Below, piece by piece: positions 1 to 17,461 of a stretch of DNA of 17,461 bases; positions within the stretch are counted from its first letter, which is position 1; the number at the start of each line of letters is the position of its first letter. The notes under the pieces are model-generated. The model had not been told where the DNA came from and did not search any database. It saw only the letters and a list, made by a program, of their open reading frames with translations. The DNA is taken from positions 1 through 17,461 of the forward strand of contig JBDIWJ010000038.1 of NCBI GenBank assembly GCA_039638295.1. The letters are read 5' to 3'. Origin of the DNA: Candidatus Phoenicimicrobium oleiphilum (lineage in GTDB: Bacteria > Atribacterota > Phoenicimicrobiia > Phoenicimicrobiales > Phoenicimicrobiaceae). The position numbers were made by a program, and so were the translations under genes.

Positions 1-35
1 GTTGATGAATTTGACTACGAACTTCCTGATTAAGA

Positions 36-92
36 GTGCACGATCTTATGCTACAATATTAAACATTAAAACGAGTACACGATCTTATGCTA
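36..92 (+). repeat. Left-end array: 2 direct copies of GT(G/A)CACGATCTTATGCTA (36-53, 75-92)
   Basis: Read directly; the reverse complement of the right-end repeats differs at 1-2 of 18 positions. Confidence 0.92.
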
Positions 93-175
93 TATAACAT
101 ATAGCCATTAGCCCACTTCTTTGCTTTCTCGCTATTCTGGCTAACGACTATTTACTATTCACTAACGACTATTTT

Positions 176-454
176 TTAAGCTCCTACATCCATAACATCA
201 GTAGACTTATAATCAAGGATTCGAGCATTGACTTTAGCTACTAAGTCATTACCATTGTTATGAAAGATATTCTTAGCAATTATAGTATCCATAACCCCCT
301 CAATAGCTGCATCTTGGGCCGCAAAATCCACATAGTCTCCATCCTCTACAGTCTTAGGATTATTTAGGGTAAGATTTACCGATTTGCCTGCACTATCTCT
401 AAACTGCATATACAGTCTCTTGTAAGTGGTTACTTCTCCTAATTCAGTTGCCAT
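176..454 (-). CDS. DUF2922-family protein
   Basis: 92 aa with the LxMxFxDxxGK...L.L.NPK...VMDTII.KNIF...G.DL..A pattern; AAAGGAGGTG RBS upstream; paired with DUF1659. Confidence 0.8.
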   Translation of the reverse strand: MATELGEVTTYKRLYMQFRDSAGKSVNLTLNNPKTVEDGDYVDFAAQDAAIEGVMDTIIAKNIFHNNGNDLVAKVNARILDYKSTDVMDVGA

Positions 455-486
455 TGGTTATTCACCTCCTTTGATAATTTGTCAAT

Positions 487-524
487 CCTCGTTCCCCGTT
501 ATCACGGGGACAAGTTTCACGAGG
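487..524. repeat. Short REP-like palindrome between DUF1659 and DUF2922
   Basis: TCCCCGT-TATC-ACGGGGA stem nested in CCTCG...CGAGG. Confidence 0.45.
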
Positions 525-534
525 GCAAGTTTAA

Positions 535-762
535 TTACTGAGTTAGTTGAGACTCTTTTTCAAGTCTAATTTCATCTAAAGGATACTTCTGTAAGCCCAA
601 TAACGCAGTTGCTACATCATAGACATCCTGTTCGGCAGCACCAGATTTAACCTTATTAAAAGTCTTGGCTTGAATGATAGGTGCTCCGGTAGTAGGATTA
701 GTACCGGTAACTAGTCTTAGTTGTAAAGATGAATCTCTGGGAACTACTACGACTACGGCCAT
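535..762 (-). CDS. DUF1659-family protein
   Basis: 75 aa with the SSLQLRLVTG...G.PI...KTFNKVK..A..QDVYDVA.AL..LQ pattern; GGAGGTG RBS upstream. Confidence 0.82.
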   Translation of the reverse strand: MAVVVVVPRDSSLQLRLVTGTNPTTGAPIIQAKTFNKVKSGAAEQDVYDVATALLGLQKYPLDEIRLEKESQLTQ

Positions 763-780
763 TTATATCACCTCCTTTTT

Positions 781-847
781 TAAACCCCGTTAGATGTCTA
801 CTCCGTTAAATAATAAACCCCGTTAGATAATAAACATCTAACGGGGT
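781..847. repeat. REP/MITE-like element: TAAACCCCGTTAGAT x2 (781-795, 814-828) plus inverted CATCTAACGGGGT (835-847)
   Basis: Direct and inverted copies read from the sequence. Confidence 0.65.
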
Positions 848-884
848 GAACTTTAAGTTTAGCAAAGCTAAGCGCTACGTAAAT

Positions 885-913
885 ATATTATCATATTTTT
901 ATATATTAGTCAA
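885..913 (-). promoter_or_regulatory. Putative sigma70 promoter for DUF1659-DUF2922
   Basis: Minus strand TTGACT-17 bp-TAATAT with a TG extended -10. Confidence 0.5.
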
Positions 914-1199
914 ATTTAGGATTTTATTGCCCTTTATAATATATAAAGCTTCCTATTACTTTAATTTCCTTATATATACTCTTTATTTTATACAAATAAA
1001 GGGATCCTTCCCGATATAAGCCTGTCCTCGACCCGACTGGGGAAAGGACCCCTTTCCCGCCAAAAATAGTTTTAATTAATAGATATATAAATATTATTTG
1101 TGAAATAAATAAAATTAGCTTAAAATAAGTATAAGAATCTATAAAGATATACCACAAGGAAATTTAGTGGTTAATTTTCGAAACTTCACCTAGAGTCGT

Positions 1200-1274
1200 G
1201 CATAAACGAAATAGTTCGCAAAACATGCCAATTTGGGAGCATAAACGAAGTAGTTCGATTATTTTAAGTTATCT
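1200..1274 (+). other. Putative integron attI-like site
   Basis: Two 19-bp direct repeats GCATAAACGAA(A/G)TAGTTCG (1200-1218, 1239-1257) followed by core G/TTATCT (1268-1274), which marks the start of cassette 1. Confidence 0.6.
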
Positions 1275-1307
1275 ACAATAGGTTGCCTTGATCAGTGGAG
1301 GTTTTGA

Positions 1308-2087
1308 ATGTTTCCGACAGAAAAGCTCGAATTCGAGGATTTTTATCTGCTTGAAGCATTCCAAATTGCATATTTACCGGGATGGATTTCTGAAAGAGAA
1401 TTTGCAGTAGTACTATGGGCTAATCCATCCATAGAGAACTTTCTAAAGAGGAAATGCCCTTCGATAAGCAATTTTATCAATAAGATTAAGAAAGAAAATG
1501 GACCAGCCAAAGACGATAAGGATCTTACTATTTGTATCAAGAAAGTCATTGAAACTTGTTCTGATATTTTAATCTACAACAAATGTCCACAAGTTTATGA
1601 TAATCTGGAATTTCATAATTGGGATTTCAAAGAGGTAACCTCTGTAGCCTCTTTGGATGACAAAATTATATTAGATGGAGGTTCAGGAACAGGGCGTGTT
1701 GCATTAGAAGTAGCTAAATATGCAAGATATGTCTTTGCAATGGAACCTGTTACTAGACTTAGGCAATTCATTAAAGATAAGGCTAAGAAAGCTAAAATCA
1801 ACAACGTATATGTAATTGATGGATTTCTACATTCAATCCCTTTGCCCGATAATTTTATCGATGTATTAATCACATCCCATGCATTGGGATGGCGGCTAAG
1901 AGATGAACTTCAGGAATTTGAGAGAGTTGTTAAGAACCAGGGGTATATCATCCACTGCCCAGGAACAGCTGATAACCCTTCTGAAGAGGAAACACATAAT
2001 GAATTGTTGAAAAATAGTTACAGTTTTGGTAAATACAAGGAAACGGATGGATGGAAAAGGAAATACTGGAAGAAAGTGACGAAATGA
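1308..2087 (+). CDS. Class I SAM-dependent methyltransferase (gene cassette 1)
   Basis: Motif I ILDGGSGTG, acidic residue after beta-2 (AMEP), IPLPDNFIDVL, ERVVKNQG; GGAGG RBS; bounded by attI-like and attC sites. Confidence 0.85.
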   Translation: MFPTEKLEFEDFYLLEAFQIAYLPGWISEREFAVVLWANPSIENFLKRKCPSISNFINKIKKENGPAKDDKDLTICIKKVIETCSDILIYNKCPQVYDNLEFHNWDFKEVTSVASLDDKIILDGGSGTGRVALEVAKYARYVFAMEPVTRLRQFIKDKAKKAKINNVYVIDGFLHSIPLPDNFIDVLITSHALGWRLRDELQEFERVVKNQGYIIHCPGTADNPSEEETHNELLKNSYSFGKYKETDGWKRKYWKKVTK

Positions 2088-2117
2088 AGGCTAAGGTTCA
2101 AAAAGGCAACCTACAGC

Positions 2118-2186
2118 AGATAACAGCGTGTTTGCGACGCTTCGCTAAATGCTTTCGGCACTTCGCAAACACGCAAACCGTTATCT
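2118..2186 (+). other. attC-type cassette recombination site 1
   Basis: R'' AGATAAC (2118-2124) and R' GTTATCT (2180-2186) around a perfect 12-bp stem GCGTGTTTGCGA/TCGCAAACACGC; located just after a stop codon. Confidence 0.82.
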
Positions 2187-2222
2187 GAAATATCGTTAAA
2201 TTTTATTTAGGGAGGAGTAATT

Positions 2223-3263
2223 ATGATTCAAAAATTTTGGGAAGACTTATTTAATTCATCTGAAGCAGAAGGTTTATCGATAGCCTCTAAGGAGGATGTT
2301 GAGCAGATTATTGACATACTCATAGCGGACAAAATCGACCCTCAAGTTTTTCTTTCAAATCTTGAAGCTTTACTACTAGGAGGTATGCCATCTATCAACG
2401 ATTTTTTTGGAGTTGGAGAAAAGAAAAAACATAAACCAACAGAATCAGTATCGCATTTTACATCCATAGTTAATAGACCGCTTGGTATTCCATTGTGGTT
2501 TCTCGCTGCTTATCCGGATGTTATGGTTTGGCTCGATGAGCAAGAGAAAAAATATATAAAATCTCATAATCGTGATTACGATGGTTGGGGAATAAAAATG
2601 GCAAAGTTATTCGGAATAAATATTGAGGATGGGCAATTAAATGAGAATCAGATTATGGATAGTAAAGGAAAAACTCGACCAAAGTATCTTAAAAACTTGG
2701 TTCAATCCTATAAAGATGCAACAGAAAAAGCACTTGAAACGGCAGTAAAAAATATAGAAAATGATGTATATTTAGGCGATGAAATCCTCAAAGTATTCGG
2801 ATCTGAAAATAATTTTACTTTTATCGCAGAAAATACGACTAAATTTTATCTGGAGTTATCAAGAAACTATGCCGGTAGATTTAATGACGAATCTTCATTA
2901 TTAGCTACAGCTGGAATACTTGATGCACGATTTTATATTTTTGTGGAACGAAAAATTAATCCCATGGAAATATTATCTATAGCGAAAAAATCATCGGAAG
3001 CAGGGAAGGAATCGCTAATAAACTTTATTATCGATCTTGAAGTAAAATTATTTAAGGTTGATACACCCGATATGGATTTTGATGACATAAAAGATGTTTG
3101 CGAAGAACAACGACAAAATATCGAAAAGGCAATTCAAAAAGTAAAAGATGAATATACCAGCGAACCGCGTTTTGCTTCGGAGGTTGCTGCCTTTATGAAT
3201 TCTACTACGTTTAAGCCATACAGAAAAATGTTGGGGATTAAGAACAAATTTTTGTTTTTTTAA
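2223..3263 (+). CDS. Hypothetical protein (gene cassette 2)
   Basis: 346-aa ORF with GGAGG RBS, flanked by attC1 and a degenerate attC2; no recognised motif. Confidence 0.8.
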   Translation: MIQKFWEDLFNSSEAEGLSIASKEDVEQIIDILIADKIDPQVFLSNLEALLLGGMPSINDFFGVGEKKKHKPTESVSHFTSIVNRPLGIPLWFLAAYPDVMVWLDEQEKKYIKSHNRDYDGWGIKMAKLFGINIEDGQLNENQIMDSKGKTRPKYLKNLVQSYKDATEKALETAVKNIENDVYLGDEILKVFGSENNFTFIAENTTKFYLELSRNYAGRFNDESSLLATAGILDARFYIFVERKINPMEILSIAKKSSEAGKESLINFIIDLEVKLFKVDTPDMDFDDIKDVCEEQRQNIEKAIQKVKDEYTSEPRFASEVAAFMNSTTFKPYRKMLGIKNKFLFF

Positions 3264-3283
3264 TTGAAGAATTTAACAACACA

Positions 3284-3388: not shown

Positions 3389-3709
3389 AATGGTGGTTTT
3401 CACCATTTTGGTATAATCCCCCACCTAGAATATAATAATCATTAGTAAAATTATTGAAATAAACCCGGCTTAAATGAGTTTTTTCCTAATCAGCAAAGAG
3501 GCTTTTCCCTCACTCCATTAACTTACCCTTATTAATAAAAATTACAGTCAAAAGAGGGTATAAACATAAACAAAGAAAAAACAAATGCCTTAAAATCGAT
3601 TGTAGATGGCCTCTTTTCCTCTCTTCCCCGGTATTTTATTGAAATAATCTATCAACCTGCTTTTATTGGCTTCCTGGTAAATGGCTTCTGACATCTCATC
3701 ACAACGACC

Positions 3710-4765
3710 GCCCGCCGAGAGCTTTTTTTGCTAAGAAGTGTAATTGAAAGCCACCACATACATAACAAGACTTTATCGGACATTCTACAAGAAATATATG
3801 AGGGCTTATCTTATCCGATAAAGCTTTGTTATGTATAGCAAAAAAAGCATTATATTTTTAACCAGCTAAAAGCTTTTTTAGTCTGGTTAAAAATATAAAG
3901 GCGGGCTCAATTAGATACTTTTTATCGTAGGGCTAAATCTCTATTCCTAATAATCGAATGCCTTCCCCCCCTTCCCTCCCCTATTCCTGCTCACTATACT
4001 TCTTACGTTTAAATATTTTTTATCTGTCTGGTATGTACACTCCGGGAAGAACAGATAAAAAATACTAAAACTATCCCAAGAAATTATAGGTGCGACAACG
4101 AGGGCGTTTATAGAAGACTGAAGCACCACAAAAAAACAGAGAAGGCATTAAATACAGGACTTTTTGTAGTGCCGACTTCTACAAACGCCAGGAGAAGAAA
4201 ATACAATAAGAAGAAAAAAACGCTCTTTTCCCCTCGCGATAGGTAAAAAATCTCCAATCCAAAAAGGTATTTTCTTTTTAGTGGGAGATTTTTTTCTTAT
4301 CGCGCAAACACAAAGAATCGAAAAGACATAGCCACCGAAAAAGAAGATAAAAAGTTCCCACTCTTCTTCTTTCCCTTACTTTTTATCTTGTTTTTACGGG
4401 GAGAAGACGATATCACGAGAGATAGCAAAATCACGAAAAGGTTCGCAAATAGGGGCGGGGCAAGGGAGAGAGGAACGGCGATATACCCACATTTATTCTT
4501 GAAGAGCCTGGGTGAATCGACCGCAGTTTTTCCTTCCCCCTTAATGCTTCCCCCCTATCATTAATAACCTAACCTTATTTTTTTGCGGTGGCGAATAAAG
4601 CGGAGCAACAGCGGGGCATCAGAGCGACACACCTACAATTATGCTTTAAGAGCGTCCCCGCGAGCGTAGCTTTTGAGCCAAGGAGCAAAAAATAAAAGAA
4701 GGGGGTTAAGAGGGGGGTCTTAGGGGGGATTTAAGGGGGAAGGAAAGTTACCCGCCCCGTCGGTG
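3710..4765. ncRNA. Large structured non-coding region (candidate ncRNA or folded ssDNA element)
   Basis: At least 8 stems of 12-23 bp, several nested, with no credible ORF. Confidence 0.5.
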
Positions 4766-4784
4766 TAATTGTAAAATTAGAATA
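4755..4784 (+). repeat. 30-bp direct repeat, copy 1 (left of the R-M module)
   Basis: CCCCGTCGGTGTAATTGTAAAATTAGAATA; 28/30 identical to 8215-8244. Confidence 0.85.
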
Positions 4785-5158
4785 GGCGTAGTAGATTAAA
4801 ATAACCAAGTAAACCCTATTTAGTAGATATTCACTTAACAGGGTAAATTAGATAAGTCAGGGCGACTAGGATTGATAAGTTAATATTGGGCGAAGTGGAT
4901 TAAATTAGATCTAAAATAAAAAGTAGAGAGGGTTATGAGTAGAGAAATAAAAAGATTATAAATAGAGCCTGAAATATATTTGAGCCCCCATTTATTCTGA
5001 CACCTCCTATCCTCTATATTGATTTTAATAAATACTTTTTTGATAGTATCAATTTATAAAAATATGGAAAACGCATACTTATTTATTCTTTGTTGGCGAA
5101 TTAATAAGAAAAATATAAGCTGAAGAAATGTTACAAAGAACAACCCCCAGACACTATA

Positions 5159-5233: not shown

Positions 5234-5449
5234 ATGAGTAAATCAATATTAATAAAATTTGGCAATATGGTTAGGAAGGAAAGATTAAAAAGAAATCTTT
5301 CTCAAGAAGATCTTGCTGCAAGGGCGGGAGTTCATCGCACATATATTGGTATGATTGAAAGAGCGGAAAAAAATATTACTCTTAATAATATTGAAAAAAT
5401 TGCTTCAGCGCTAAAAATTAAAATATATGAATTGTTTAAAGAGAGTTAA
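5234..5449 (+). CDS. XRE-family HTH protein, R-M controller (C) protein
   Basis: LSQEDLA.RAGVHRTYIGMIERAEKNITL is typical of C proteins; lies directly upstream of the putative endonuclease. Confidence 0.88.
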   Translation: MSKSILIKFGNMVRKERLKRNLSQEDLAARAGVHRTYIGMIERAEKNITLNNIEKIASALKIKIYELFKES

Positions 5450-5452
5450 TTT

Positions 5453-6256
5453 ATGAATATTTATGATATTTTGCGACAAATAAAAATTGATTTTGACAAA
5501 GCTATATTGTCTGCTCAATTTAATGGTAAGAGTTATGCAAATGGAAATAAAGCAAAGGAAGCATTAATCCGATCGCAAAGAATAATTAATTATATACATG
5601 AATTTGTAAAAAATGAGTTTAAACGTTGTGGTGTACCACCACAAATGATTTTCCCACCAATTGGAACTTCTAAACCAGAAATAAAGATCAAAGGATTTTT
5701 AAAATCAAAATATCAAGATGTTTCAATTATCCCATATAAAAGACTAATACTTCTTACCAACACAATGTTGCCAGAACTTGATCATATTCTTACCGTTAAT
5801 ATCCGAAGTCAACTAAGTAGCTTAAGTAAAAATATTGATACTTTATACGAAAGAACTTTTGCTGAAGCATTAAATTTGCATTTAAGTTATCCCAATCAAT
5901 GCCTTGGAGAAGTTTATTTGATTCCTACTCATGAATACGACGACAAAACTATGTTACAAAATAGAGTGAATTACAAATCAGTCTCAAAAATTGATGACTA
6001 CATACGGATGTTTCAAGCCATTAATAATAGACGTGACATCAATAAAGATGAATATAAATATGAAAGAATCTGCCTTTTGATTGTCGACTTCAGACAAGAA
6101 ACACCTAAATTATATAACTCAATAGAAGAATTAAAAAATGATGGCTTGGTACCTCAAAACTCAACAGTGAGTTTAAAGAATCTAACTGTTAAAGGTTTTA
6201 CAAAAGATTTAATCGCTATTTATACCGAAAGATTTGGCCATGGTATCATTGTTTGA
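5453..6256 (+). CDS. Putative type II restriction endonuclease
   Basis: C-R operon convergent with a DNA methyltransferase; PD-(D/E)xK-like spacing QDVSII...LTVNIRSQ...LYER. Confidence 0.7.
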   Translation: MNIYDILRQIKIDFDKAILSAQFNGKSYANGNKAKEALIRSQRIINYIHEFVKNEFKRCGVPPQMIFPPIGTSKPEIKIKGFLKSKYQDVSIIPYKRLILLTNTMLPELDHILTVNIRSQLSSLSKNIDTLYERTFAEALNLHLSYPNQCLGEVYLIPTHEYDDKTMLQNRVNYKSVSKIDDYIRMFQAINNRRDINKDEYKYERICLLIVDFRQETPKLYNSIEELKNDGLVPQNSTVSLKNLTVKGFTKDLIAIYTERFGHGIIV

Positions 6257-8099
6257 TATTTATACCGTATTTTTCAATTAAAAATTCATCAATTCTCTTT
6301 TTACAACTTTCTTTATTTAAGAAAGTTATTTCACTGGGTGTAAAGTATGGAATACCAAATAATTCTATAAAGTTCTTTTGGTAGCAAGGATACCCACCCT
6401 CAATCGATACACTTGTTTGCTTAATATAGTAATCCATTACGCTGGAATTTAGTATTTTCCCAAGAATAGTTAAATCCAATTGCTGTTCTATTTTGGAAAA
6501 CAAATTAGGTTTATCTTTTAAATAAATAGCATAGCCATTACAAAAGAGGGCACTTTCATCCTGTTCCAATAAAAACCTGGGTGTAGAGCTAAATGTCGGG
6601 GTAAGTAGTTTTTTCCCAAAAAAGTTTAGACCTTGAGTTCTAGCATATGCATACCATTCTGCATATTTAATCCTACCCTTATCTCTTGTAGCCAGTTCTA
6701 CTTTTGCTTCTAACAAGTACTCATAACAACAAGGATAATATTTCTTCAGTTCTTTTTCTTTAATTATTTCAACTTTACCATTAGATATTTGATAAGGGAA
6801 AATAATCTTGCGATTATTTTTATTTAAATCATCTTGATTTTTGAAATCAGATATTTTAGCAATCGGCTTAGTAATATTTTTTTCAATTTGGTAGACTTTT
6901 CCTTTATATTGTTTATGGTAGTAGCCATCTTTAAGTGTGGACCCATCAATAAAATAAACGGAGTCCTTACAGGTTGCTATACCAACTCGAATATCTACAA
7001 TATCCCCGAGTTTATTTCCAGCACTTTCTATTTTTTTAATATTATCTTGATCAGAATTTCTAAGAAGGCGCCATTTTTTATTATTTAAGTCTTTAAAATA
7101 TATTCTTGAGTAGTTAAGTTCATATAACGAATTTAACGCTTCATAATCATCGACTCTTTCGAAATAAAAGAAATCACTTTTCTTCCATTTTAGGAAAGTA
7201 ATACAGGTATATGTTTGAGCTTCAAAAAGTTTTAGGTGATTAAAATCTATAATTTTTTCTATGAGCTTATTTGATTCCATATATTTTCGTAGTTGAATAG
7301 CTGCAAGGGAAGTAAAATAATTATTTGGTGTAATATATCCCAAAACACCATCTTTTTTCATTATATTTATGCCTAATTCAAAAAATGCAAAATAAAGGTT
7401 ATAATTACCTATTTTTAGTGTTTTCCAGTTCTTGAATAATTTACCTCTTAATTTTTTGTTAAGATCTTGAAATTTAACATATGGCGGATTACCAATTACA
7501 ACATCAAATTTTTTTTCAGGAAATAATTTGTTCCAATCCACAGATAAACTATCAGCCGTTTTAAGATTAAAATTTATTTCTTCTTTATCCTCTTTATTTT
7601 TCAGGGCAAGTAAAGAAAGTAAAATTTTTGCCCTCCGAACACTGTAATTGGCAATATCCACTCCATACAAATTTTCCTCAATAATATCAATAATTCCTTT
7701 TTTATATTTTTCTAACATAAATAGGGCGGTGGCTATAAGAAAAGCACCACAACCACAACTAGGATCACAGACTTTCTGAGAGGAAGATGTGATTACTTGA
7801 GAAACAATATAATTGGTTATTAATTTTGGAGTAAAAAAAACACCATTTGTTTTCTTATCTTCGGCTGGTACCAATATTTCAAAAATGTTTACAAAATCAT
7901 TAATGTTTCTCGATTCAATTATTTTTTTTAATTCTTCTTTGGCAGACAATATTGTTTTTTTGTTATCATTAATTATTTTTTTAATAAAAATATTTTTCTT
8001 TACTTGAATATTATTGCACTCAACAAATAGCTGAACGAGTGCATTCTCAATAATTGTAATATCATATTTGCTTAAAATATTAGTCAATTTTTTTTGCAT
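6246..8099 (-). CDS. N6-adenine DNA methyltransferase, gamma class (Eco57I/TaqI-like)
   Basis: GVFFTP (motif X), DPSCGCGAF (motif I), VIGNPPY (motif IV), NLYFAFFE, C-terminal target recognition region; GAGGTG RBS. Confidence 0.92.
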   Translation of the reverse strand: MQKKLTNILSKYDITIIENALVQLFVECNNIQVKKNIFIKKIINDNKKTILSAKEELKKIIESRNINDFVNIFEILVPAEDKKTNGVFFTPKLITNYIVSQVITSSSQKVCDPSCGCGAFLIATALFMLEKYKKGIIDIIEENLYGVDIANYSVRRAKILLSLLALKNKEDKEEINFNLKTADSLSVDWNKLFPEKKFDVVIGNPPYVKFQDLNKKLRGKLFKNWKTLKIGNYNLYFAFFELGINIMKKDGVLGYITPNNYFTSLAAIQLRKYMESNKLIEKIIDFNHLKLFEAQTYTCITFLKWKKSDFFYFERVDDYEALNSLYELNYSRIYFKDLNNKKWRLLRNSDQDNIKKIESAGNKLGDIVDIRVGIATCKDSVYFIDGSTLKDGYYHKQYKGKVYQIEKNITKPIAKISDFKNQDDLNKNNRKIIFPYQISNGKVEIIKEKELKKYYPCCYEYLLEAKVELATRDKGRIKYAEWYAYARTQGLNFFGKKLLTPTFSSTPRFLLEQDESALFCNGYAIYLKDKPNLFSKIEQQLDLTILGKILNSSVMDYYIKQTSVSIEGGYPCYQKNFIELFGIPYFTPSEITFLNKESCKKRIDEFLIEKYGINIKQ

Positions 8100-8214
8100 A
8101 TATTCACCTCAATAATTGCTAATTATAGTATACGTGATTTAAAAACAATTATCAACAAAAAATAAAAAATTCTTTTTTTCGCAATAAATCAATGTTGGGG
8201 AGATTTATTACACA

Positions 8215-8244
8215 CCCCATCGGTATAATTGTAAAATTAGAATA
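8215..8244 (+). repeat. 30-bp direct repeat, copy 2 (right of the R-M module)
   Basis: CCCCATCGGTATAATTGTAAAATTAGAATA. Confidence 0.85.
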
Positions 8245-8519
8245 ACTGGTAGGTTAAATTGGAGTAGCTAAACTAGATTAGCCAGGATTAAAGAAAGTCA
8301 AAAATAACACTCGGGTCAAAGATTTATATACAAACATATGTTCTTATTATGAATCCTCTCCGCATACCCAAAGTCTCTAAGATTAAAGAGATTGATAGAG
8401 AGAATAAAAAGTAAAGAGTTAAACAGCCACCTAATGAGTATATTAGTCCGCATTTTTCCGCGGAAACCCTTGAGTAATATAGAAATTACCCCTGTAAAAT
8501 TACAGGGATTTTTGTGCAC

Positions 8520-9545
8520 TCAATATATAGATTTATCTATAACCCCTATTTCTTTTAGTTCCCCTATCACCTTCTTAATAGTCCTGTAATCCATATCTGC
8601 TGTTTCCGCTATCTTATTTATTGAAGGACTTTCGTCTTCAAAAACAGTCCCTAAAAGACAAGCCACTCCCCGTTGTGTATTACTCAATTCCGGTAATATT
8701 CTTATATTTTTAATTAAAATATTGCTCTCTTTTAATTTACCACCCTTAAACCTATATCCACAGTCCTCACATTTTATATAACCAAGCTTATTTCTGATAC
8801 CACTACACCCATAATTATAAGCTTTCCGATAGACCTTTTTTAATTCTAATTCAGTTAGAGGTTTTGATAATGCTTTATTCTTTGCAATAACTAACTTTTT
8901 TGCATACTCTTTTGTGTTTTTATTTCGAATTAATAAGTTATAGAGTATAAATAAGCTATTATTCCTCTCCCCTTCTTGTAAATCTTTACTTAATATCTGG
9001 CGTATGCAGTCAACTTTCTGGCCATGATATTTTGGAATTTTAAAAGTTTTATGCTTTCTATCTTCTTTGATTAATAATTTTGGTAGGGGCAACATCTCAC
9101 TAAGAGGTATTTCATAAACATATTGATGGGCTTTTATTATTGAGGGGGGAGCTATAACATAACTTCCATTACTTTTTAATTCGAGTCGCCTGCCGAATAA
9201 GCTATTGGTACTTTTAACGTATTCGCCATTAAGAGAAAAGTAATAATGGTAACCTCTTCTTGTTCTAACTCTGGTGGTTTCTTTTATCTCTGGTAATAAT
9301 TCTTTTAACTCTGGCAAAAGATTAAGGTCATCAACATCAATAACTGCTAGTTTACTTATTCCCCCGGTAACTATTCCAATATTTACCTCACTAAATTTAA
9401 TATACCAATCAAGAACATCTTCTATGTTTGCTTTTTTAAATTGGTAAGGTTTCCAATAGATATAAGGCTTTTTTTCACTATTAATCGGGATTAAACTATA
9501 TTCGTTTTTTAAATATTCATTTATTAAACTTGCAATATAGCTCAA
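8520..9545 (-). CDS. Bifunctional DNA primase/polymerase (Prim-Pol) with PriCT-like and C-terminal HTH regions
   Basis: KKP, NIGIVTG, VIDVD, T.RGYHYYF and YVIAPPS motifs; GERNNSLF (PriCT-1-like); TTG start with AAGGGG RBS. Confidence 0.88.
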   Translation of the reverse strand: MSYIASLINEYLKNEYSLIPINSEKKPYIYWKPYQFKKANIEDVLDWYIKFSEVNIGIVTGGISKLAVIDVDDLNLLPELKELLPEIKETTRVRTRRGYHYYFSLNGEYVKSTNSLFGRRLELKSNGSYVIAPPSIIKAHQYVYEIPLSEMLPLPKLLIKEDRKHKTFKIPKYHGQKVDCIRQILSKDLQEGERNNSLFILYNLLIRNKNTKEYAKKLVIAKNKALSKPLTELELKKVYRKAYNYGCSGIRNKLGYIKCEDCGYRFKGGKLKESNILIKNIRILPELSNTQRGVACLLGTVFEDESPSINKIAETADMDYRTIKKVIGELKEIGVIDKSIY

Positions 9546-10272: not shown

Positions 10273-10749
10273 TCAAGGCGTAAACTCTTTTCTTTTTTCT
10301 TCCAATAATTTTTCAACCGCTTTTCCGCTAAGTTTCTCCCTTGCAATACGAAATAATTCTGCATGAGGAATATAAGCATTGGCCGGATCTTTATACCATC
10401 CAGTCATAACACTTATAGTAAAATAGAAGTTATTACCTACTAGTGGTTCTAAATCCTCTCCAAATTTTAGAAGTTTACTCATTATTTTGCCAAATTCACT
10501 GGGAGCGATTGACGGTTCAATTTTCCACATCAGTTCTATAATTCTAAAATAAACATCGGTCGACCCATCCTCTAAACCCATTATATAAATACACTTTTCA
10601 TAATCAGTATAAGAAGCCCAGCTTTCACCATAATTGTAGGATTCACTGGTAGAATCACTAGTAGAATAAGAAAACTCCATTAAAAAAATTGAAGCAAAAA
10701 CAATTAGTATTATAAAAATTGCCTTACTCATCTTCATACGGATTATCAC
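10273..10749 (-). CDS. Hypothetical exported protein
   Basis: 158 aa with a hydrophobic N-terminal signal or anchor; the start may be a downstream Met (GAGGTG RBS nearby). Confidence 0.7.
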   Translation of the reverse strand: MIIRMKMSKAIFIILIVFASIFLMEFSYSTSDSTSESYNYGESWASYTDYEKCIYIMGLEDGSTDVYFRIIELMWKIEPSIAPSEFGKIMSKLLKFGEDLEPLVGNNFYFTISVMTGWYKDPANAYIPHAELFRIAREKLSGKAVEKLLEEKRKEFTP

Positions 10750-10847
10750 CTCTCAAAATAGCTAAAAATTATGATAAATATAGCGTTTTTATAAATCCAG
10801 GTCAATTTACTTTTTGCAATGTCTAATAAGGATTATAGGCAATATTT

Positions 10848-12350
10848 TTACGTCTTACTATTTACATCCTCAATCCTTCCGGATATAATCCACTCTTTTA
10901 TTATCTCTCTCCTCTTTTCTTCCAGGACAACCTCGAGTAATTTTGAGGTTTCTCCTCTACCTTTTACCTTATTAAACTTTTCTTTCCAAAAGTCAGGTAG
11001 TCTGTTTTCTGTTTCTTTCCTTATCTCTTCCTGCTGTAAGGAATTAAGTGAATTATAAATTTGTTCTATCTTTTTAATCTCTTCCCGCCTCTTTTTATTT
11101 TCCTCTTCTTGTAGTTTTATTTTAATATATTCTATTTTTTCCTCTTCTTCTTTCCGTTGTTCCTCTCTTTTTTCCCTTAAATATTCCCCCGGGAATTGCC
11201 AATTTTCTCTTATTGCCTTCACTAAATAAGCTGCTTTATCATCAGCATTAGAATAATCAATTGCCTCAATCCATTTTTCTATTAATTCTTGATCATTGCT
11301 TTTCATTAAATTTTCAGCGGTTACCTTAGAAACATTCATTTTAACTAATTTATTTATTAAATTAAGCTGTTCTTTAGAAAATTCTTCTGTATCCTCTTTT
11401 GGTCCTGGTAGATATTCTCCTGTCCGGTTATTAATATTCTTTGTCTCTGCCCCTTTCATTTCTTCCTTGGCTCTTTCCCCTGGCCAATAATAAATAAGCC
11501 AATCCTTTTTACCATTTTCACTCCATTCATATTTTGAAATAAAACCAGTATCCCTAAGTTCATTATTGCCTGGGTTTAATTGCTGTTTGGCTAAAGAAAT
11601 ATACTTGTGAGGGGTTACAGGAAGGAGTTGACATAATTTAGAATAGCGGTAACAGATAAAACCTTGCCTTTTATTCCTTAAACCATAAAACTTTACCCCT
11701 AAAATTTCATAAAGCCTGGAGGCTATTTTACTTTTGAGGCTTTGTAGATAATCGTAATCGATAGGTTTTATATAAAAGGAATTTAGGCTCTGGAGATAGA
11801 TATCGCCTAAATATAATAAGTTTGTTTCAGCAATAATATCGTCTTCTAATTGCTCACCTCTAAAAATAACCCCATCATATAATCCGAAAATCTTTGTTAT
11901 CCATTGCTTTTTGTCTTTATGATAAAAAGCTCCTTCTGATTTTATCCCAGTCATTTGTATCTTTTCTAAAGCCCTTTTTACTCGTCTATAATTCTCGCCT
12001 GAATCGTTGATTTTCATTCTATTACATAGATCATAAATGGAAAAAGGTATTGGATTTTTTATCTCTCCTTTTTCTTTTAAAATTTCACTGATAATCTGTT
12101 CTATGGCTTTATGAACTTCTCTATCAAAGGGACCAGGATATCCATATTTAGGATTTGCTGATACATTCCAAATAACTTCTATCTTTTGATCCCCTCTTTT
12201 AACTATCTCTTTATATTCGGTTTCTAATTTTTTATATTTTCTTTCTAAGGCAAAAAATGGGAATACTAATAAATTTACTTCAGAATTTATTATCTTTGGT
12301 AAGTCAACTTGATTATTCTTTTTTATAGTAGTCTCTTCGGATTCTTTCAT
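10848..12350 (-). CDS. repA: Plasmid replication initiator protein (RepA/TrfA-like)
   Basis: E.NL..FPFF.L, YG.PGPFD..V, FSIYDLC..M, SG.NY.RVK.AL motifs; iterons immediately upstream. Confidence 0.8.
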   Translation of the reverse strand: MKESEETTIKKNNQVDLPKIINSEVNLLVFPFFALERKYKKLETEYKEIVKRGDQKIEVIWNVSANPKYGYPGPFDREVHKAIEQIISEILKEKGEIKNPIPFSIYDLCNRMKINDSGENYRRVKRALEKIQMTGIKSEGAFYHKDKKQWITKIFGLYDGVIFRGEQLEDDIIAETNLLYLGDIYLQSLNSFYIKPIDYDYLQSLKSKIASRLYEILGVKFYGLRNKRQGFICYRYSKLCQLLPVTPHKYISLAKQQLNPGNNELRDTGFISKYEWSENGKKDWLIYYWPGERAKEEMKGAETKNINNRTGEYLPGPKEDTEEFSKEQLNLINKLVKMNVSKVTAENLMKSNDQELIEKWIEAIDYSNADDKAAYLVKAIRENWQFPGEYLREKREEQRKEEEEKIEYIKIKLQEEENKKRREEIKKIEQIYNSLNSLQQEEIRKETENRLPDFWKEKFNKVKGRGETSKLLEVVLEEKRREIIKEWIISGRIEDVNSKT

Positions 12351-12384
12351 TTCTTAACTCTTTAATTATTTTAAATTTTTTTAA

Positions 12385-12438
12385 ATAACAACAATATTTC
12401 CCTGTTGTTGTTATTGTATATATTGTATATATTGTATA
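12385..12438. other. AT-rich origin segment: ATAACAACA/TGTTGTTAT inverted repeat and 3 tandem TATTGTATA 9-mers (12412-12438)
   Basis: Lies between the iterons and the rep start, as expected for a DNA-unwinding element. Confidence 0.6.
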
Positions 12439-12476
12439 TTCCAGCAAGCTCTTATAAATAAAGGATAATAAGCGAT

Positions 12477-12600
12477 TTTCTTAAGTCAAACTACGGTATT
12501 TCTTAAGTCAAACTACGGTATTTCTTAAGTCAAACTACGGTATTTCTTAAGTCAAACTACGGTATTTCTTAAGTCAAACTACGGTATTTCTTAAGTCAAA
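12477..12600. repeat. Iterons (oriV): 5 perfect tandem copies of TTTCTTAAGTCAAACTACGGTA (22 bp) plus a 14-bp partial copy
   Basis: 22-bp period (two helical turns), no spacers, upstream of rep. Confidence 0.92.
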
Positions 12601-12606
12601 GTTAAA

Positions 12607-13440
12607 TTAGTTGACTTTAATTACCCAACCTTCTTCTTTCCACTTATTCCACTTTTTATCATCTATTCCATCTACCAGCTTAATATCTTCTGGTACTTTA
12701 AATTCTCCATGAACTTTTCTATAATCAATTATATTTTGTGCAATTTTCTTACCCACTCCCCAAAGCTTACTTAATTCCTCTAAAGAAGCGATATTAATAT
12801 TTATAATTTTATTATCTGGAGAAATAATATTTTCTGTGGCAGTTTCTAATATTGACGAGGGTTTCATATTTATATTTGTTTTACTAATTAATTCCTGGTA
12901 TCTTTCTGTGCTATATTTATTATTCCATAAGTTATTAAATTGATTTTGATATTTTTTAACTATATTCTTATCGTCTATTACTAATAAATTTTCATCATTT
13001 CTTTCTCCAGCAGAAGCAGTCCAATTATATGAGCCTGTAATTACTATTTCATTATCTATTACCGCAAATTTATTATGCATAATATAATTATTTGAACTTA
13101 TTCTTATTTCTTTTATACCGTTGTTTATAAAATAACGAGACTTACTATATTCGGCGTTAACCTGTGAACGATCTAAATATATTTTAATATCCACTCCCCT
13201 ATCTTTCGCTCTAATTATTGCCTGGGCTATTTCTCTATCAGTAAAGGTATACATAGCAATATTAATAAATTCTTTTGCATTATCTATATTTTTAATGATT
13301 ATTGATTCTGGATCATCATAAAGAGAGAAATAGACTTCTATTTTAGCAAGAGAATTTAAGGAAAATATAAATAATAAACTAATAATTAATATAACAATAA
13401 ACCTAAATTTAAATTGTTTTTTATGAATTAGAATATTCAT
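12607..13440 (-). CDS. Exported PLD-family (Nuc-like) nuclease fused to a ComEA-type helix-hairpin-helix domain
   Basis: Signal peptide; single HKD motif HNKFAVID...GSYNWT...NDEN; ININIAS.EEL..L.GVG...A..II.YR..G.F. Confidence 0.88.
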   Translation of the reverse strand: MNILIHKKQFKFRFIVILIISLLFIFSLNSLAKIEVYFSLYDDPESIIIKNIDNAKEFINIAMYTFTDREIAQAIIRAKDRGVDIKIYLDRSQVNAEYSKSRYFINNGIKEIRISSNNYIMHNKFAVIDNEIVITGSYNWTASAGERNDENLLVIDDKNIVKKYQNQFNNLWNNKYSTERYQELISKTNINMKPSSILETATENIISPDNKIININIASLEELSKLWGVGKKIAQNIIDYRKVHGEFKVPEDIKLVDGIDDKKWNKWKEEGWVIKVN

Positions 13441-13501
13441 AATAAATTCCTCTTTTTAACTTATTTTAACTTTAATTGAGTATTCTTAATATTAGAAAGA
13501 A

Positions 13502-13702
13502 TTATTTTTTATCTAGGACTGGGTAATCTCCACTCAGATACTTTTTAAGATTCTCTTCTGTGATATACCATTTCCCGGTAATTTTTTGTCCTTTAATTTT
13601 TCCTTCTCTAAAGTAGGCTCTTATAGTAGGCTTGGTACTTTTCAACATCTCTGCAACTTCATCTACACTATATAATTTAATTCCGCTAACTTCTAAAGGC
13701 AT
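13502..13702 (-). CDS. Excisionase-like HTH DNA-binding protein
   Basis: YSVDEVAEML...TIR.Y.REGKI...K..GKWYI pattern; GAGG RBS. Confidence 0.85.
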   Translation of the reverse strand: MPLEVSGIKLYSVDEVAEMLKSTKPTIRAYFREGKIKGQKITGKWYITEENLKKYLSGDYPVLDKK

Positions 13703-13745
13703 TTTCTTTCCTCCTATTTATTTCTATTAAAATATAGTTATACGT

Positions 13746-13849
13746 TAAAACGTTTTGATGGCGAAGCTCTTTAGCGTTTAAGCGTTTTGACGTCAAAACA
13801 CTAAAGCTCTTTGACGCTTTAACGCTTTGACGTCAAAACACTAAAACGT
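13746..13849. repeat. Putative partition centromere: 13 contiguous degenerate 8-mers
   Basis: TAAAACGT TTTGATGG CGAAGCTC TTTAGCGT TTAAGCGT TTTGACGT CAAAACAC TAAAGCTC TTTGACGC TTTAACGC TTTGACGT CAAAACAC TAAAACGT, abutting the adaptor gene stop codon. Confidence 0.7.
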
Positions 13850-14145
13850 CAAATATTTTCGTCAATTAATTTTTCAATAACTTCACTCAATTGCATATCA
13901 TTGTCGGCGGCATAAACCCTTAATTTCTTTGATTGGCTGGAAGACAAATAAATAGTATGTTTTCTTTTTGTTTCTGGTTTTTTAACTTTTTCTGGCTTTG
14001 ATATTTTAGAGTCTTGACGCTTTAACGCTTTAGGTTTTACTTTCTTTGATTCTTTAGATTCTTTTTTTTCTTCCCTGGTATCCTGAATCCAATCCAAAGA
14101 AGATTCTTTAAAGGGATCACTACCTAAACGTTCTTTTTTTGCCAT
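13849..14145 (-). CDS. Small partition adaptor (type Ib ParB/ParG-like, C-terminal ribbon-helix-helix)
   Basis: Follows parA by 2 bp; low-complexity charged N-terminus; KHTIYLS...KKLRVYAA..DMQLSEVIEKLI. Confidence 0.72.
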   Translation of the reverse strand: MAKKERLGSDPFKESSLDWIQDTREEKKESKESKKVKPKALKRQDSKISKPEKVKKPETKRKHTIYLSSSQSKKLRVYAADNDMQLSEVIEKLIDENI

Positions 14146-14147
14146 TT

Positions 14148-14897
14148 TTAACCTCTTTTTATGATTTCCTTACAAAGGTCTAAATAGTCTTTTGCTCCAT
14201 AACTATTAGATTTATACTCAAAAATAGTTTTACCGAAACTCGGGGCCTCGGCCAAAGATATATTATCTCTAATTAAAGTATTAAATAGTTTGTTGCCAAA
14301 ATACTCTTTTATTTTCTCTACAACTTCCCGGTTAAGGTTTTTTCTGCCATCAAACCTCATAGCTATAATTCCGGCAATTTCGATATTTTTATTTAGTCTT
14401 TTTTTAACTATATTAATAGTTTCTAAAAGTTTCGTCATACCTTGTAGGGCCAAATATTCTGTTTGTAAAGGGATATAAACACTTTGAGCAGTGGTAAGGG
14501 CATTTAAAGTTAAAAGTCCCAAGCTGGGGGGACAATCAATAAACACATAATCATATTTTTTTAGTCCCTCCAGGGTTTCTTTAAGTAAAAATTCCCTGCC
14601 AGCTACTCCTGAAAACTCTATTTCGGCTCCGGATAAATTAAGAGAAGAGGGGACCAGGTTAAGACTATTTCTTTCGATAATTGTTTCTTTTAAAGTTGAG
14701 GTTCCTTTTAAAAGCTCATAAACTGTATTTTTAAGCTCGTGAGCAGGTATCCCCAAACTGTAAGTTAAATGTGCCTGAGGATCTAAATCTATCAATAGAA
14801 CACGCTTCCCAAGCTTATTTAAGCCCGCTCCTATATTAATTGTGCAAGTAGTTTTACCTACCCCGCCTTTTTGATTGATTAAAGCGATTATTTGCAT
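14148..14897 (-). CDS. parA: ParA/Soj-family partition ATPase
   Basis: NQKGGVGKTT, LIDLDPQ, IDCPPSLG and EAPSFG motifs. Confidence 0.95.
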   Translation of the reverse strand: MQIIALINQKGGVGKTTCTINIGAGLNKLGKRVLLIDLDPQAHLTYSLGIPAHELKNTVYELLKGTSTLKETIIERNSLNLVPSSLNLSGAEIEFSGVAGREFLLKETLEGLKKYDYVFIDCPPSLGLLTLNALTTAQSVYIPLQTEYLALQGMTKLLETINIVKKRLNKNIEIAGIIAMRFDGRKNLNREVVEKIKEYFGNKLFNTLIRDNISLAEAPSFGKTIFEYKSNSYGAKDYLDLCKEIIKRG

Positions 14898-15171
14898 TAA
14901 ATTGCCCTTTAATTTAAATATTTTCTTTTAGTTATAGTTGGACTTCTTTATTATTAGTATTAGTATATTTTCTATTAATTTGTATTTTATATTTTAAGGG
15001 GATTTCTCCATTCAATTTTAGTCTTTCTTGTATCATCTTATAATAAATTTCATCTATTTCCGCTGAAATAAAATTTCTTTTAAGTTTTTTTGTTAAAAAT
15101 ATTTCATTGCCCGAACCCCCAAAATGTATAAAAATTAAATATTATTTATACGGATATTTAACTTAAAACTA

Positions 15172-15960
15172 TTAAAACAAAGCTAAACCTTTATTTTTTA
15201 CATTATTTTCCTTATAATGAACTATTCCCCTATAAAGAGGATTTTCCAGTATATATTTAATGGTCCCGGCATACCACTTGCCACCTCTGGCAGTAGGTAC
15301 GCCTTTTTTATTTAATTCCCTGGCTATTGCTCTTAAACCCATCCTCTTATATCTTTTCATTTTAAAGATCATTCTAATTATTTCTGCTTGTTTTTCATCT
15401 ATTACTAATTTTTTATTTTTTGTTTTATATCCTAAAGCGGTAGCCCCTCCGGCATAACCACCCTTTTGAGCTTTATTAATCCTTCCTCCGCTAAGCCGCA
15501 TAGTGATAAAAGCCTTTTCTAATTCAGATACTATTCCCATAAATTGCCGGAAGGCCTTTCTCATTGGATCATTGCTATCTAAATGAGGTTCTTTTATACT
15601 GATAAGTTTTTTATTAAGCTCTTCTAATTTTTTAATCAAATGCTCTTGGATATAAAGGTCCCTGGCTAATCTATCTAACTTGAAAATTAAGACACCTTCA
15701 ATTTCTTTATTATTCTCTATATAACCAAATAATTCTGCTAATCCTGGCCTGTTTTCTAGTTCACTTGCTCCACTTATCCCATTATCCTTAAATATTTTTA
15801 CCAACTCACAATTATTTTTCTCAGCATATTTTTTTAGACTGTTTTCCTGTAATTCTATAGTCCCTTCTTCTTTTTGATTATCTGTACTTACCCGGCAATA
15901 ACCTACTAATATTTTAGGCTTATTCATATTCTTACGCCTATATGATATTACTTTAAACAT
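15172..15960 (-). CDS. Serine recombinase (catalytic plus recombinase domain); the true start may be Met at 15927
   Basis: YCRVST, D.GISG, RPGL, KLDRLAR, then G...LGY, IARELN.KG...GGKW....IL.NP.Y.G; the protein ends there. Confidence 0.9.
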   Translation of the reverse strand: MFKVISYRRKNMNKPKILVGYCRVSTDNQKEEGTIELQENSLKKYAEKNNCELVKIFKDNGISGASELENRPGLAELFGYIENNKEIEGVLIFKLDRLARDLYIQEHLIKKLEELNKKLISIKEPHLDSNDPMRKAFRQFMGIVSELEKAFITMRLSGGRINKAQKGGYAGGATALGYKTKNKKLVIDEKQAEIIRMIFKMKRYKRMGLRAIARELNKKGVPTARGGKWYAGTIKYILENPLYRGIVHYKENNVKNKGLALF

Positions 15961-15990
15961 ACATTAACATATATAAAATATTTTTGTCAA
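15961..15990 (-). promoter_or_regulatory. Putative promoter of the recombinase
   Basis: Perfect TTGACA -35 followed 16-18 bp later by TGTTAATGT. Confidence 0.45.
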
Positions 15991-16292
15991 ATATTTTTGA
16001 TATATTTTTTAATGTGATTTGATATGAAAAAATGAAGAACTCTTTAGCAAACTAATAAGTATGCAGAGATAATAAGAGGATATACAAGAAAATGAGAGAA
16101 TATAAATGAAAAAAGAATTAATAGGGGAGATTTTCAGGGGTCATGAAAAAATATCATCTATTTAAACCTGTTTTAAGCGATTATTTCAAATTGTCTGGTA
16201 TGATTCCTTATGAAGCAACAAAATTTCTTCATATAAGAGAAATATGAAGGTCTTCTAAAAAACGCTAAAAACCTTATATATCAACGGTTTCA

Positions 16293-16493
16293 TTAATTTT
16301 TAGCAATATCAACTCGTAAATCATTAATTGCATGCTTAATTTCTTTGATTTCGGCAGTAACATTATGGGAAAATTCTTTCTGGTTTTTTATGATTTCATT
16401 AATAAAAAACTCTAATTTCCATACTAAATATACAGAAAGTACCAGGGGGAATCCGTTATTGGCTATTAATTTTAGTATATATTCAATATCCAA
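16293..16493 (-). CDS. YvrJ-family small membrane protein
   Basis: IANNGFPLVLSVYLVWKLE signature followed by a coiled-coil-like tail; overlaps the peptidase stop. Confidence 0.8.
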   Translation of the reverse strand: MDIEYILKLIANNGFPLVLSVYLVWKLEFFINEIIKNQKEFSHNVTAEIKEIKHAINDLRVDIAKN

Positions 16494-16872
16494 TTAATTC
16501 TTTTCCTTTCCAAATTCGCCTTTCTCCAGGCCTAATATCAACGTGTAAGAAATTTTCCTTCTCGTAAAAACCAATCCCATTAAAACCTAATTCCTTTACA
16601 TAAATAAGAAGATCAGAAAGCAAGAAATTTTGGGCATAAATGTCTGCCGCCATACCTACAAGATGATAAGAACTAGGAACTCCCCCTACCCTTTGATTTT
16701 CATCTTTACAGCGGTAACCGGAATTGATATAAATAGGCCTATTTATAACCGTTCTTAGATGGTCTAGTCTAGCCAAAAGATCTGGAGATAACATTACCCG
16801 CCGACAACAGGGACATTCAAACTCATACAAAGAAAAATATTCAGTTATTTTTATATCATTGATTTTTCTCAT
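16483..16872 (-). CDS. Peptidase M15 family zinc peptidase, putative endolysin
   Basis: INSGYRC...N..VGG...SYH..G.AAD...FLHVD. Confidence 0.9.
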   Translation of the reverse strand: MRKINDIKITEYFSLYEFECPCCRRVMLSPDLLARLDHLRTVINRPIYINSGYRCKDENQRVGGVPSSYHLVGMAADIYAQNFLLSDLLIYVKELGFNGIGFYEKENFLHVDIRPGERRIWKGKELIGY

Positions 16873-17233
16873 TTTTTACTTTAATCTTCCTGGCATTTCT
16901 TATAGAATCTGGCATAGCGTTATAAATTTTTTCATTTATCTCCGGGACTGTTGCCTTCATGAGATCCTGGACATAGGAAATTTCACCCTCTTTTAATTTA
17001 ACGTTTTGTTTCTTTAATATCTCAATTAATTTCTTCCAGGCTTCTTCCCATTTTTTGTTACCATTTCCTATTCCAAATTCTTCTTCTGCCCAGAGCATAG
17101 CCGCAAGAATAGCCTCTTTTATTTTTCTTGCCCTATCTTCTCCAAATTTGCTAATCATAAATTTACTAACTATACCTACTAAAAATACAATTACAAAATC
17201 TAATAGATATTTAGTGATAAATGCTTCTATCAT
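16856..17233 (-). CDS. Putative holin (LL-H-like)
   Basis: Single N-terminal TM helix, then AMLWAEEEFG.GNG.KK..A; overlaps the peptidase start; AAGGAG RBS. Confidence 0.65.
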   Translation of the reverse strand: MIEAFITKYLLDFVIVFLVGIVSKFMISKFGEDRARKIKEAILAAMLWAEEEFGIGNGNKKWEEAWKKLIEILKKQNVKLKEGEISYVQDLMKATVPEINEKIYNAMPDSIRNARKIKVKNEKNQ

Positions 17234-17249
17234 TTACTACTCCTTTCTC

Positions 17250-17287
17250 TCTCCCAGGGAAGGTCCGCGGTCCCTTCCGAGGGAGAA
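17250..17287. promoter_or_regulatory. GC-rich hairpin just upstream of the holin RBS
   Basis: TCTCCC..GGAAGG-loop-CCTTCC..GGGAGA; possible terminator or leader structure. Confidence 0.4.
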
Positions 17288-17369
17288 TTATATTAATTGA
17301 CCAATTCATAATCGTAAGAGTAAATATGCTGAGCGAAAAAAGTTAATCGATTAATATATAGCTGACAAC

Positions 17370-17448
17370 TAGCATAACATCGTGTACCAAAATTATAGCA
17401 TAACATCGTGTACTGTCTAATACTATTCTATAGCATAACATCGTGTAC
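17370..17448 (-). repeat. Right-end array: 3 identical copies of TAGCATAACATCGTGTAC (17370-17387, 17396-17413, 17431-17448)
   Basis: Read directly; inverted relative to the left-end copies. Confidence 0.93.
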
Positions 17449-17461
17449 TATTTGTTCTTTG

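Follow-up and report, generated by a model that had tools for sequence, protein, structure and literature searches.

DUF1659 and DUF2922, two families of small proteins, include SroA and SroB of Staphylococcus aureus, whose sroAB genes are reported to be sigma-driven, to respond to DNA damage, and to be inducible around 1000-fold (10.1101/2022.10.19.512975), much like a late operon. Here we analyze a stretch of 17,461 nucleotides from Candidatus Phoenicimicrobium oleiphilum of the Atribacterota (contig JBDIWJ010000038.1, the whole of which we call the window) that carries the same two families at the head of a five-gene cassette, DUF1659-DUF2922-holin-M15 peptidase-YvrJ, on what is most likely a whole circular iteron plasmid opened in assembly at one insertion sequence (IS). 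We tentatively propose that this operon opens a fraction of host cells and that the plasmid leaves as free or protein-bound DNA to be taken up by competent neighbors, a reading to which we give a probability of about 0.4, as the best account of a lysis-like operon that is fixed in plasmid backbones without other recognizable transfer genes.

The sroAB genes of S. aureus share with the window the two Pfam families, their order, and strong ribosome-binding sites, and the published data on SroA and SroB correct the view of the original prediction that both families lack an assigned function. SroA and SroB interact in a two-hybrid assay, whereas the interaction of the window pair is predicted. The link to the sigma factor SigS has its counterpart in the copy of the cassette on the host chromosome, which follows a split sigma factor, but the window plasmid itself has no sigma factor. 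Unlike sroAB, the window pair is followed by holin, M15, and YvrJ genes and sits on a plasmid; the accessible part of the SroAB account mentions neither lysis genes nor plasmids.

Export loci such as UviA-UviB-amidase-Bcn5 and the ChiW/ChiX type 10 secretion genes resemble the window in placing holin-like genes beside a wall hydrolase without signal sequence, often together with a dedicated activator, but differ from it in that the window has no bacteriocin, toxin, or chitinase cargo, contains two holin-like genes, and keeps the cassette at a fixed position of the plasmid backbone. Geobacillus plasmids of the pBSO1/pHTA426 type (rep_cluster_349), almost all of which are typed as non-mobilizable, share rep, parA, a ribbon-helix-helix (RHH) gene, a recombinase, restriction-modification (RM) cargo, and DUF1659-DUF2922-YvrJ-M15 with the window, while ComK precedes their cassette, no LL-H holin is annotated, and their Rep belongs to a different family. 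Phage-plasmids and phage-inducible chromosomal island (PICI) satellites, as we take them to be defined, are likewise small mobile elements that combine a replicon with primase, recombinase, and lysis-like genes, but no virion, terminase, or capsid-redirecting gene was found in the window and no helper in the host bin. Each part of the window is of a known kind. Open-access full text yielded no study of the Geobacillus cassette and no description of the cassette as a plasmid-backbone module or of the Atribacterota plasmid family; new here are the logic of IS ends and target duplication, the survey of plasmid families, the predicted heterodimer, and a lead to the DNA-wrapping nucleoprotein p6 of phage phi29.

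A probable circle of 17,257 bp opened at an IS

In a host bin of 1.65 Mb and 91% completeness, the window makes up all of contig C38, and named matches of its proteins indicate Atribacterota. Its ends show no direct terminal overlap; they are opposite ends of an IS that is present in multiple copies, the left one being identical to the ends of four other host contigs (C29, C33, C49, and C54) and the right one to those of three (C23, C36, and C43). In a related genome (G023), the left end has an 87% match that continues into a 394-amino-acid transposase with helix-turn-helix (HTH) and rve domains. The closest family of this transposase is IS481 (NF033577; E 4e-30, with 105 bits under the cut-off of 224), and the naming of the IS is based on 10.1101/2022.12.17.520857. 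One IS end is TGT and the other TGA, and the target repeat has 6 bp. An identical hexamer outside both IS ends indicates that positions 17362 and 100 were once adjacent. When all IS ends of the bin are paired, only 3 of 20 combinations share 6 bp, namely C23/C54, C36/C29, and the window with itself, while the other 17 share 0–2 bp; the first two are internal control pairs for the self-pairing of the window. The element probably is, or derives from, a circle of 17,257 bp in which a single IS separates DUF2922 from the holin gene.

The circular plasmid backbone proposed originally is thus probable, given this self-pairing duplication and the overlapping ends of a relative (L190), a whole contig of 19.7 kb with the full backbone, iterons, and a terminal overlap of 105 bp. 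What had been taken for a repeat junction consists of IS sequence that also occurs at 7 other contig ends, which rules out att sites or telomeres of the element. Two apparent circular overlaps among relatives (L204/L213 and L221/L250) were rejected as distinct copies on a single contig. Positions 141–175 and the IS flanks belong to an intergenic repeat family scattered across many contigs, the usual target context of this IS. Most of 8000–17362 is contained in 8 sequencing runs, including oil-field and crude-oil samples and one RNA run; runs that share only a small part were left aside.

A five-gene cassette headed by a predicted heterodimer

As originally predicted, holin, M15, and YvrJ genes form an overlapping operon at the right end (17 nt for holin/M15 and 11 nt for M15/YvrJ, on the minus strand), and DUF1659 and DUF2922, each preceded by a AGGAGGTG ribosome site, lie on the same strand at the left end (Table 1). 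The holin thereby adjoins a peptidoglycan hydrolase without signal sequence. The order obtained by joining the ends is natural, being intact in the host chromosome and in relatives such as L094, where recombinase-YvrJ-M15-holin-DUF2922-DUF1659 equals the joined window. That the block would be reunited solely in the circular form did not hold, since chromosomal and integrated copies have it in one piece and an IS split it in the window. Because this IS sits between DUF2922 and holin on the opposite strand, the lysis genes of the window copy are probably uncoupled from the upstream promoter. The M15 peptidase contains SxHxxGxAxD and HxD, which we take to be the motifs of its family, and YvrJ appears to be small-holin-like.

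Complex prediction for DUF1659 and DUF2922 scored 0.78 against 0.00 for the best control, with an agreement between runs of at least 95% and a predicted local distance difference test (pLDDT) value of at least 83 for the partners; the mark applied to this score is reached by 116 of 157 solved pairs and by 2 of 215 mismatched ones. The hetero-oligomer expected by the original prediction is therefore backed as a predicted heterodimer packed helix to helix. Foldseek searches with both models against PDB and BFVD gave no match at E≤0.001 and no capsid match, and a capsid-like role is not borne out for these two acidic proteins. The best PDB sequence match had an E of 0.78, and the ESM Atlas returned only each protein's own family or a lead at 0.76. 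Below significance, small podoviral proteins, one of them named p6, recur in the viral Foldseek lists of both proteins. The idea of a nucleoprotein survives as this weak p6-like fold lead, but a sequence relationship to p6 does not (hhalign probability of 0.1% against a single phi29 sequence; p6 family absent among the 25 of 29 Pfam families that were listed). Moreover, phi29 p6 dimerizes via a second helix that both DUF proteins lack, whereas their predicted interface is formed by the core helices.

A profile comparison of DUF1659 with DUF2922 gave a probability of 0.4%, so that common ancestry is not shown, their same topology notwithstanding. One search of longer proteins for natural fusions found only a chance-looking chimera. 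In this 97-amino-acid database protein (P0307), an N-terminal half from DUF1659 gives way at the start of the helix to a C-terminal half from DUF2922; we view it as a deletion chimera or assembly artifact that is consistent with equivalent topology. Each of the 100 DUF2922 members has a match to phrog_21372, a phage protein family of unknown function. Across all loci, DUF2922 lies directly downstream of DUF1659 in 101 of 108 matches; of the 7 exceptions, 3 fall at the end of a locus.

Distribution on plasmids and chromosomes

A survey of neighborhoods, as the original prediction had suggested, revealed a conserved plasmid family in which the cassette lies beside recombinase, ParA, and RepA genes, with no recognizable virion or conjugation genes. 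It covered 80 metagenomic loci found with the recombinase (the best 80 of 339), in which YvrJ (33 loci), M15 (27), holin (23), DUF2922 (20), and DUF1659 (18) occur besides the backbone genes ParA (34), HTH_17 (24), RHH (20), and RepA (16). All 18 loci that reach DUF1659 keep the order DUF1659-DUF2922-holin-M15-YvrJ upstream of the recombinase. Where more than 2.6 kb of upstream sequence was available, 15 of 32 loci have a DUF gene within 4 kb, and the rest have cargo, host genes, or other elements there. Other open reading frames of the family were scanned at strict thresholds as representatives of 150 of 226 clusters; many had no match, and named matches are mostly RM, abortive infection (Abi), CBASS-type, transposase, and host genes. 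The cargo slots of the family (L183–L262) are occupied by a wide variety of RM, Abi, TIR, Cap15, and Vsr genes, and judged by its cargo the family is a mobile defense platform.

On the host chromosome (C2:31866-36292), an HTH_36 protein, a split sigma factor, DUF1659, DUF2922, holin, M15, and YvrJ follow each other in a single run. Here and in L031–L033 and L090, upstream of the cassette lie genes for a Hel308-like helicase that contains a DNA-binding domain of the response-regulator type, for HTH_36, and for a two-part sigma factor (C2:28202-33720), near RM genes, radC, and tRNA-Pro. DUF1659 occurs in 38 of 61 related genomes with at most 5 copies each. Identity between the window and the host copies (C2:33929-34568) is 97% for DUF2922 and 85% for DUF1659, compared with 84–95% and 69–82%, respectively, for the plasmid-type relatives listed, while the window holin is 50% identical to its host chromosomal copy and 72–81% to plasmid relatives. 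Sequence identity thus suggests gene conversion or co-adaptation of the DUF pair between plasmid and chromosome. In a distant member of the phylum (L049:4014-16282), the pair lies in an island with a tyrosine integrase, HTH_36, an IstB-like ATPase, a metallophosphoesterase, and an LL-H holin.

For Bacillota, 80 genome loci (the best 80 of 167, mostly Desulfotomaculales-type) were surveyed, of which 73 contain DUF2922 clusters, in varied host-gene surroundings; sigma factors are 5 of 78 scanned neighbors. With Bacillota queries, the cassette was also found on complete plasmids in PLSDB: one DUF2922 query matched 41 records and another 35 in overlapping sets, on carriers of 13.7–344 kb. The window's own DUF1659 as query matched no plasmid or phage record. 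Among Geobacillus-group plasmids with the pBSO1 Rep, 18 of 19 also match DUF2922, and both pBSO1-type plasmids that were opened carry ComK-DUF1659-DUF2922-YvrJ-M15 beside rep, parA, RHH, recombinase, and RM genes, which in gene content is an independent match to the architecture of the window. An amidase lies within around 2 kb of the DUF pair on 3 of 4 opened clostridial plasmids; the Geobacillus and the clostridial carriers are related by descent and do not count as independent samples. Two Geobacillus cassette plasmids (L178:12176-13247 and L180:21758-22829) encode a ComEC/Rec2-annotated protein with DUF3006 besides ComK. Tandem duplicated DUF pairs occur in L132, L136, L144, and L182.

Search for virion, packaging, and transfer genes

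Pfam and PHROG scans of the 18 window proteins found no head, tail, portal, terminase, relaxase, or type IV secretion system (T4SS) families, as the original prediction had stated, and capsid, portal, terminase, relaxase, and T4SS genes were equally absent among the 150 scanned family clusters. Two partial matches to PHROG virion categories were seen, both in loci without DUF genes. Terminase PF03237 and HK97 capsid PF05065 were not found in the host bin, nor were TraG/VirD4 PF02534 and MOBP relaxase PF03432, a result that leaves aside other MOB families and does not exclude an oriT; ComEC is present. Isolated phages gave no match with three queries and IMG/VR none with four (exact-word seeds of low sensitivity). 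The phage-plasmid or satellite envisaged originally fits poorly with the lack of virion genes in the window, of terminase and HK97 capsid in a 91% complete host, and with the size range of the carriers.

Proposed mechanism and alternative explanations

In the proposed mechanism, an activator (a sigma factor or, where present, ComK) would switch the operon on in some cells. The DUF1659-DUF2922 heterodimer would accumulate and bind or escort DNA, or time its release, while the M15 peptidase, which has no signal sequence, would reach the wall by way of holin and YvrJ. The cell would then leak by perforation or burst, and plasmid DNA would be released and taken up by competent neighbors through transformation.

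Several observations weigh against this proposal. Both DUF proteins are net acidic, with a median pair charge of −5 over 99 pairs. Single-copy chromosomal cassettes among ordinary host genes (L043–L045) suggest a host function, many chromosomal copies lack a hydrolase (YvrJ is present in 46 and M15 in 13 of the 80 Bacillota loci), and on the fourth clostridial plasmid neither YvrJ nor a hydrolase lies near either of the two DUF pairs. The label "non-mobilizable" applies to 40/41 and 35/35 carriers in the two PLSDB sets, but also to 37/41 plasmids of an overlapping clostridial control and to 415/888 of a broad Bacillota control, so that the enrichment is weak. No promoter motif was common to the upstream regions of 7 sigma-linked and 25 plasmid-type copies, and trans-activation of the plasmid operon by the chromosomal split sigma factor is thus not supported. 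Concerning circularity, the terminal overlap of L190 sits in an IS30-like transposase, and a cointegrate of two direct IS copies would yield a contig identical to the window.

The many chromosomal copies without a hydrolase favor two other explanations that come close to release and uptake. As the stronger of them, though unlikely, the pair could be a cytoplasmic regulator or toxin-antitoxin-like unit, an effector with a binding antagonist that is possibly an acidic nucleic-acid mimic, which would stabilize the plasmid or gate the lysis genes; however, most of the S. aureus phenotypes were obtained by overexpression and could be indirect, the fold likenesses do not rise above noise, and the tandem pairs fit the dosage of an abundant protein equally well. 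Hardly less credible but likewise unlikely is protein export by holin and hydrolase in a type 10-like manner, with the heterodimer as cargo acting outside the cell as fiber, matrix, or antagonist and the plasmid as mere carrier. Sigma factor, small holin, wall hydrolase, and signal-less cargo would then repeat the layout described for UviA-UviB-amidase-Bcn5 (PMC9527704). The frequency of chromosomal copies (38/61 relatives) agrees with export, which leaves the fixed backbone position on plasmid families unexplained and sits badly with the cytoplasmic action of SroA in S. aureus. Both proteins are also built from cheap amino acids on the costs that we assumed, at the 2.7th and 8.7th percentile of 80-amino-acid host segments and the 5.8th and 10.7th in Bacillota, a modest shift. 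Slightly more doubtful than either is a far-reaching form of release and uptake in which a p6-like heterodimer would polymerize on plasmid DNA regardless of its length and the nucleoprotein filament would be freed for uptake by the lysis genes, without capsid, pilus, or relaxase. This would be an unrecognized route of plasmid spread common to Atribacterota, Geobacillus, and clostridial plasmids, with SigS-SroAB as a domesticated remnant.

We consider improbable a minimal phage-plasmid in which the pair would coat a true helper-free virion. A gene layout that resembles a late operon and includes lysis genes, the uniform phrog_21372 matches, and the predicted hetero-oligomer would fit, but the phage and IMG/VR searches described above were negative, no packaging ATPase was found, carriers vary from 13.7 to 344 kb, and both proteins are acidic. 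Still less probable is a window that is not episomal, as an integrated island or a cointegrate between two direct IS copies with the cassette as decaying cargo. Fragmented, integrated relatives are indeed common (L036, L039, L087, and L088), the operon is interrupted by an IS, and three IS ends in the bin are partnerless. Yet each window end carries the other's target duplication, requiring earlier circular adjacency, while rep, iterons, par, and recombinase are intact and the YvrJ-recombinase junction is closed.

Other features of the plasmid

The RepA initiator with its upstream iterons fits a theta-replicating iteron plasmid. RepA matches, many of them fragmentary, occur in 26 of the 61 related genomes, and at the equivalent iteron position of L190 a related 22-bp unit occurs four times. 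The order of the backbone block is conserved in relatives and includes a partition module of ParA, RHH adaptor (Pfam match below cut-off), and repeats. The primase-polymerase is also carried by L190, L085, L036, L087, and L234. Upstream of the serine recombinase, relatives have varied cargo inserted or host genes joined at the breakpoint hotspot, which may be an att site of the recombinase or a site of cargo insertion or cassette capture. The cargo at 1308–3263 is essentially absent from relatives, and the PLD-family nuclease was found in 3 of the 80 metagenomic ones. Direct repeats of 37 bp (89%; 4748–4784 and 8208–8244) bracket the RM module as if it had entered as a cassette.

The non-coding element at 3700–3912 has matches in 12 of 61 genomes and is conserved above most proteins of the family. 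It folds as a closed two-arm hairpin (DNA fold z of −10 on both strands); in an alignment of 18 copies (A5), G-T pairs favor the minus strand and covariation is seen in only 4 of 69 pairs. An Rfam scan gave no credible match, only sub-threshold ones. We view the element as a candidate single-strand origin or priming site for the primase, oriT, or RNA.

Table 1. Annotated features of the window.
Feature	Position	Strand	Evidence and remarks
IS481-like multicopy IS end	1..99	plus	last transposase codons and stop at 1–33, then terminal region with two internal repeats
6-bp target-site duplication, left copy	100..105
DUF2922 (SroB-like), 92 aa	176..454	minus	PF11148 E 1e-17; model pLDDT 82.7, beta-beta-alpha-beta
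DUF1659 (SroA-like), 75 aa, first cassette gene	535..762	minus	PF07872 E 2e-21; model pLDDT 84.4
Putative upstream control region	780..1270	minus	conserved in 15–24 related loci; terminator-like hairpin 817–847
Class I S-adenosylmethionine (SAM) methyltransferase, cargo	1308..2087	plus
346-aa cargo open reading frame	2223..3263	plus	no family assignment
Branched-hairpin non-coding element	3700..3912		long matches of ~85–95% identity in relatives
Second conserved non-coding region	4224..4813		70-bp palindrome 4235–4304
RM cargo	5234..8099		controller HTH 5234–5449 plus; N6 methyltransferase 6246–8099 minus
Putative endonuclease in RM cargo	5453..6256	plus	no family match; suggested by position
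Primase-polymerase (Prim-Pol + PriCT-1)	8520..9545	minus	profile match
RepA replication initiator	10848..12350	minus	PF10134 E 2e-12; PF01051 also matched
Iterons upstream of repA	12477..12600		5.6 exact copies of 22-bp unit
PLD-family nuclease with helix-hairpin-helix domain	12607..13440	minus	variable cargo slot
Backbone block	13502..14897	minus	HTH_17 13502–13702; repeat array 13759–13864; RHH adaptor 13849–14145; ParA 14148–14897
Serine recombinase, 262 aa	15172..15960	minus	resolvase and recombinase domains
Breakpoint hotspot between YvrJ and recombinase	16005..16075		homology breaks cluster; closed in window copy
YvrJ	16293..16493	minus	PF12841 E 8e-5, below cut-off; one hydrophobic helix and polar helical tail
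M15 peptidoglycan peptidase	16483..16872	minus	PF08291 E 9e-20; PHROG endolysin 894 E 3e-31; no N-terminal signal
LL-H-type holin	16856..17233	minus	PF09682 E 2e-4, below curated cut-off; PHROG holin 6918 E 3e-10
6-bp target-site duplication, right copy	17357..17362		same hexamer as left copy
Opposite IS end	17363..17461	plus	three internal repeats

Implications for plasmid spread

How plasmids spread when they lack both relaxase and T4SS is an open question, and the cassette is a concrete candidate module with a fixed place in the backbones of unrelated plasmid families from two phyla. It ties three DUF families and the SroAB regulators of S. aureus to one mobile cassette, for which Geobacillus plasmids of the pBSO1 family offer a harmless, cultured test system, and outlines a family of defense-laden plasmids in the Atribacterota.

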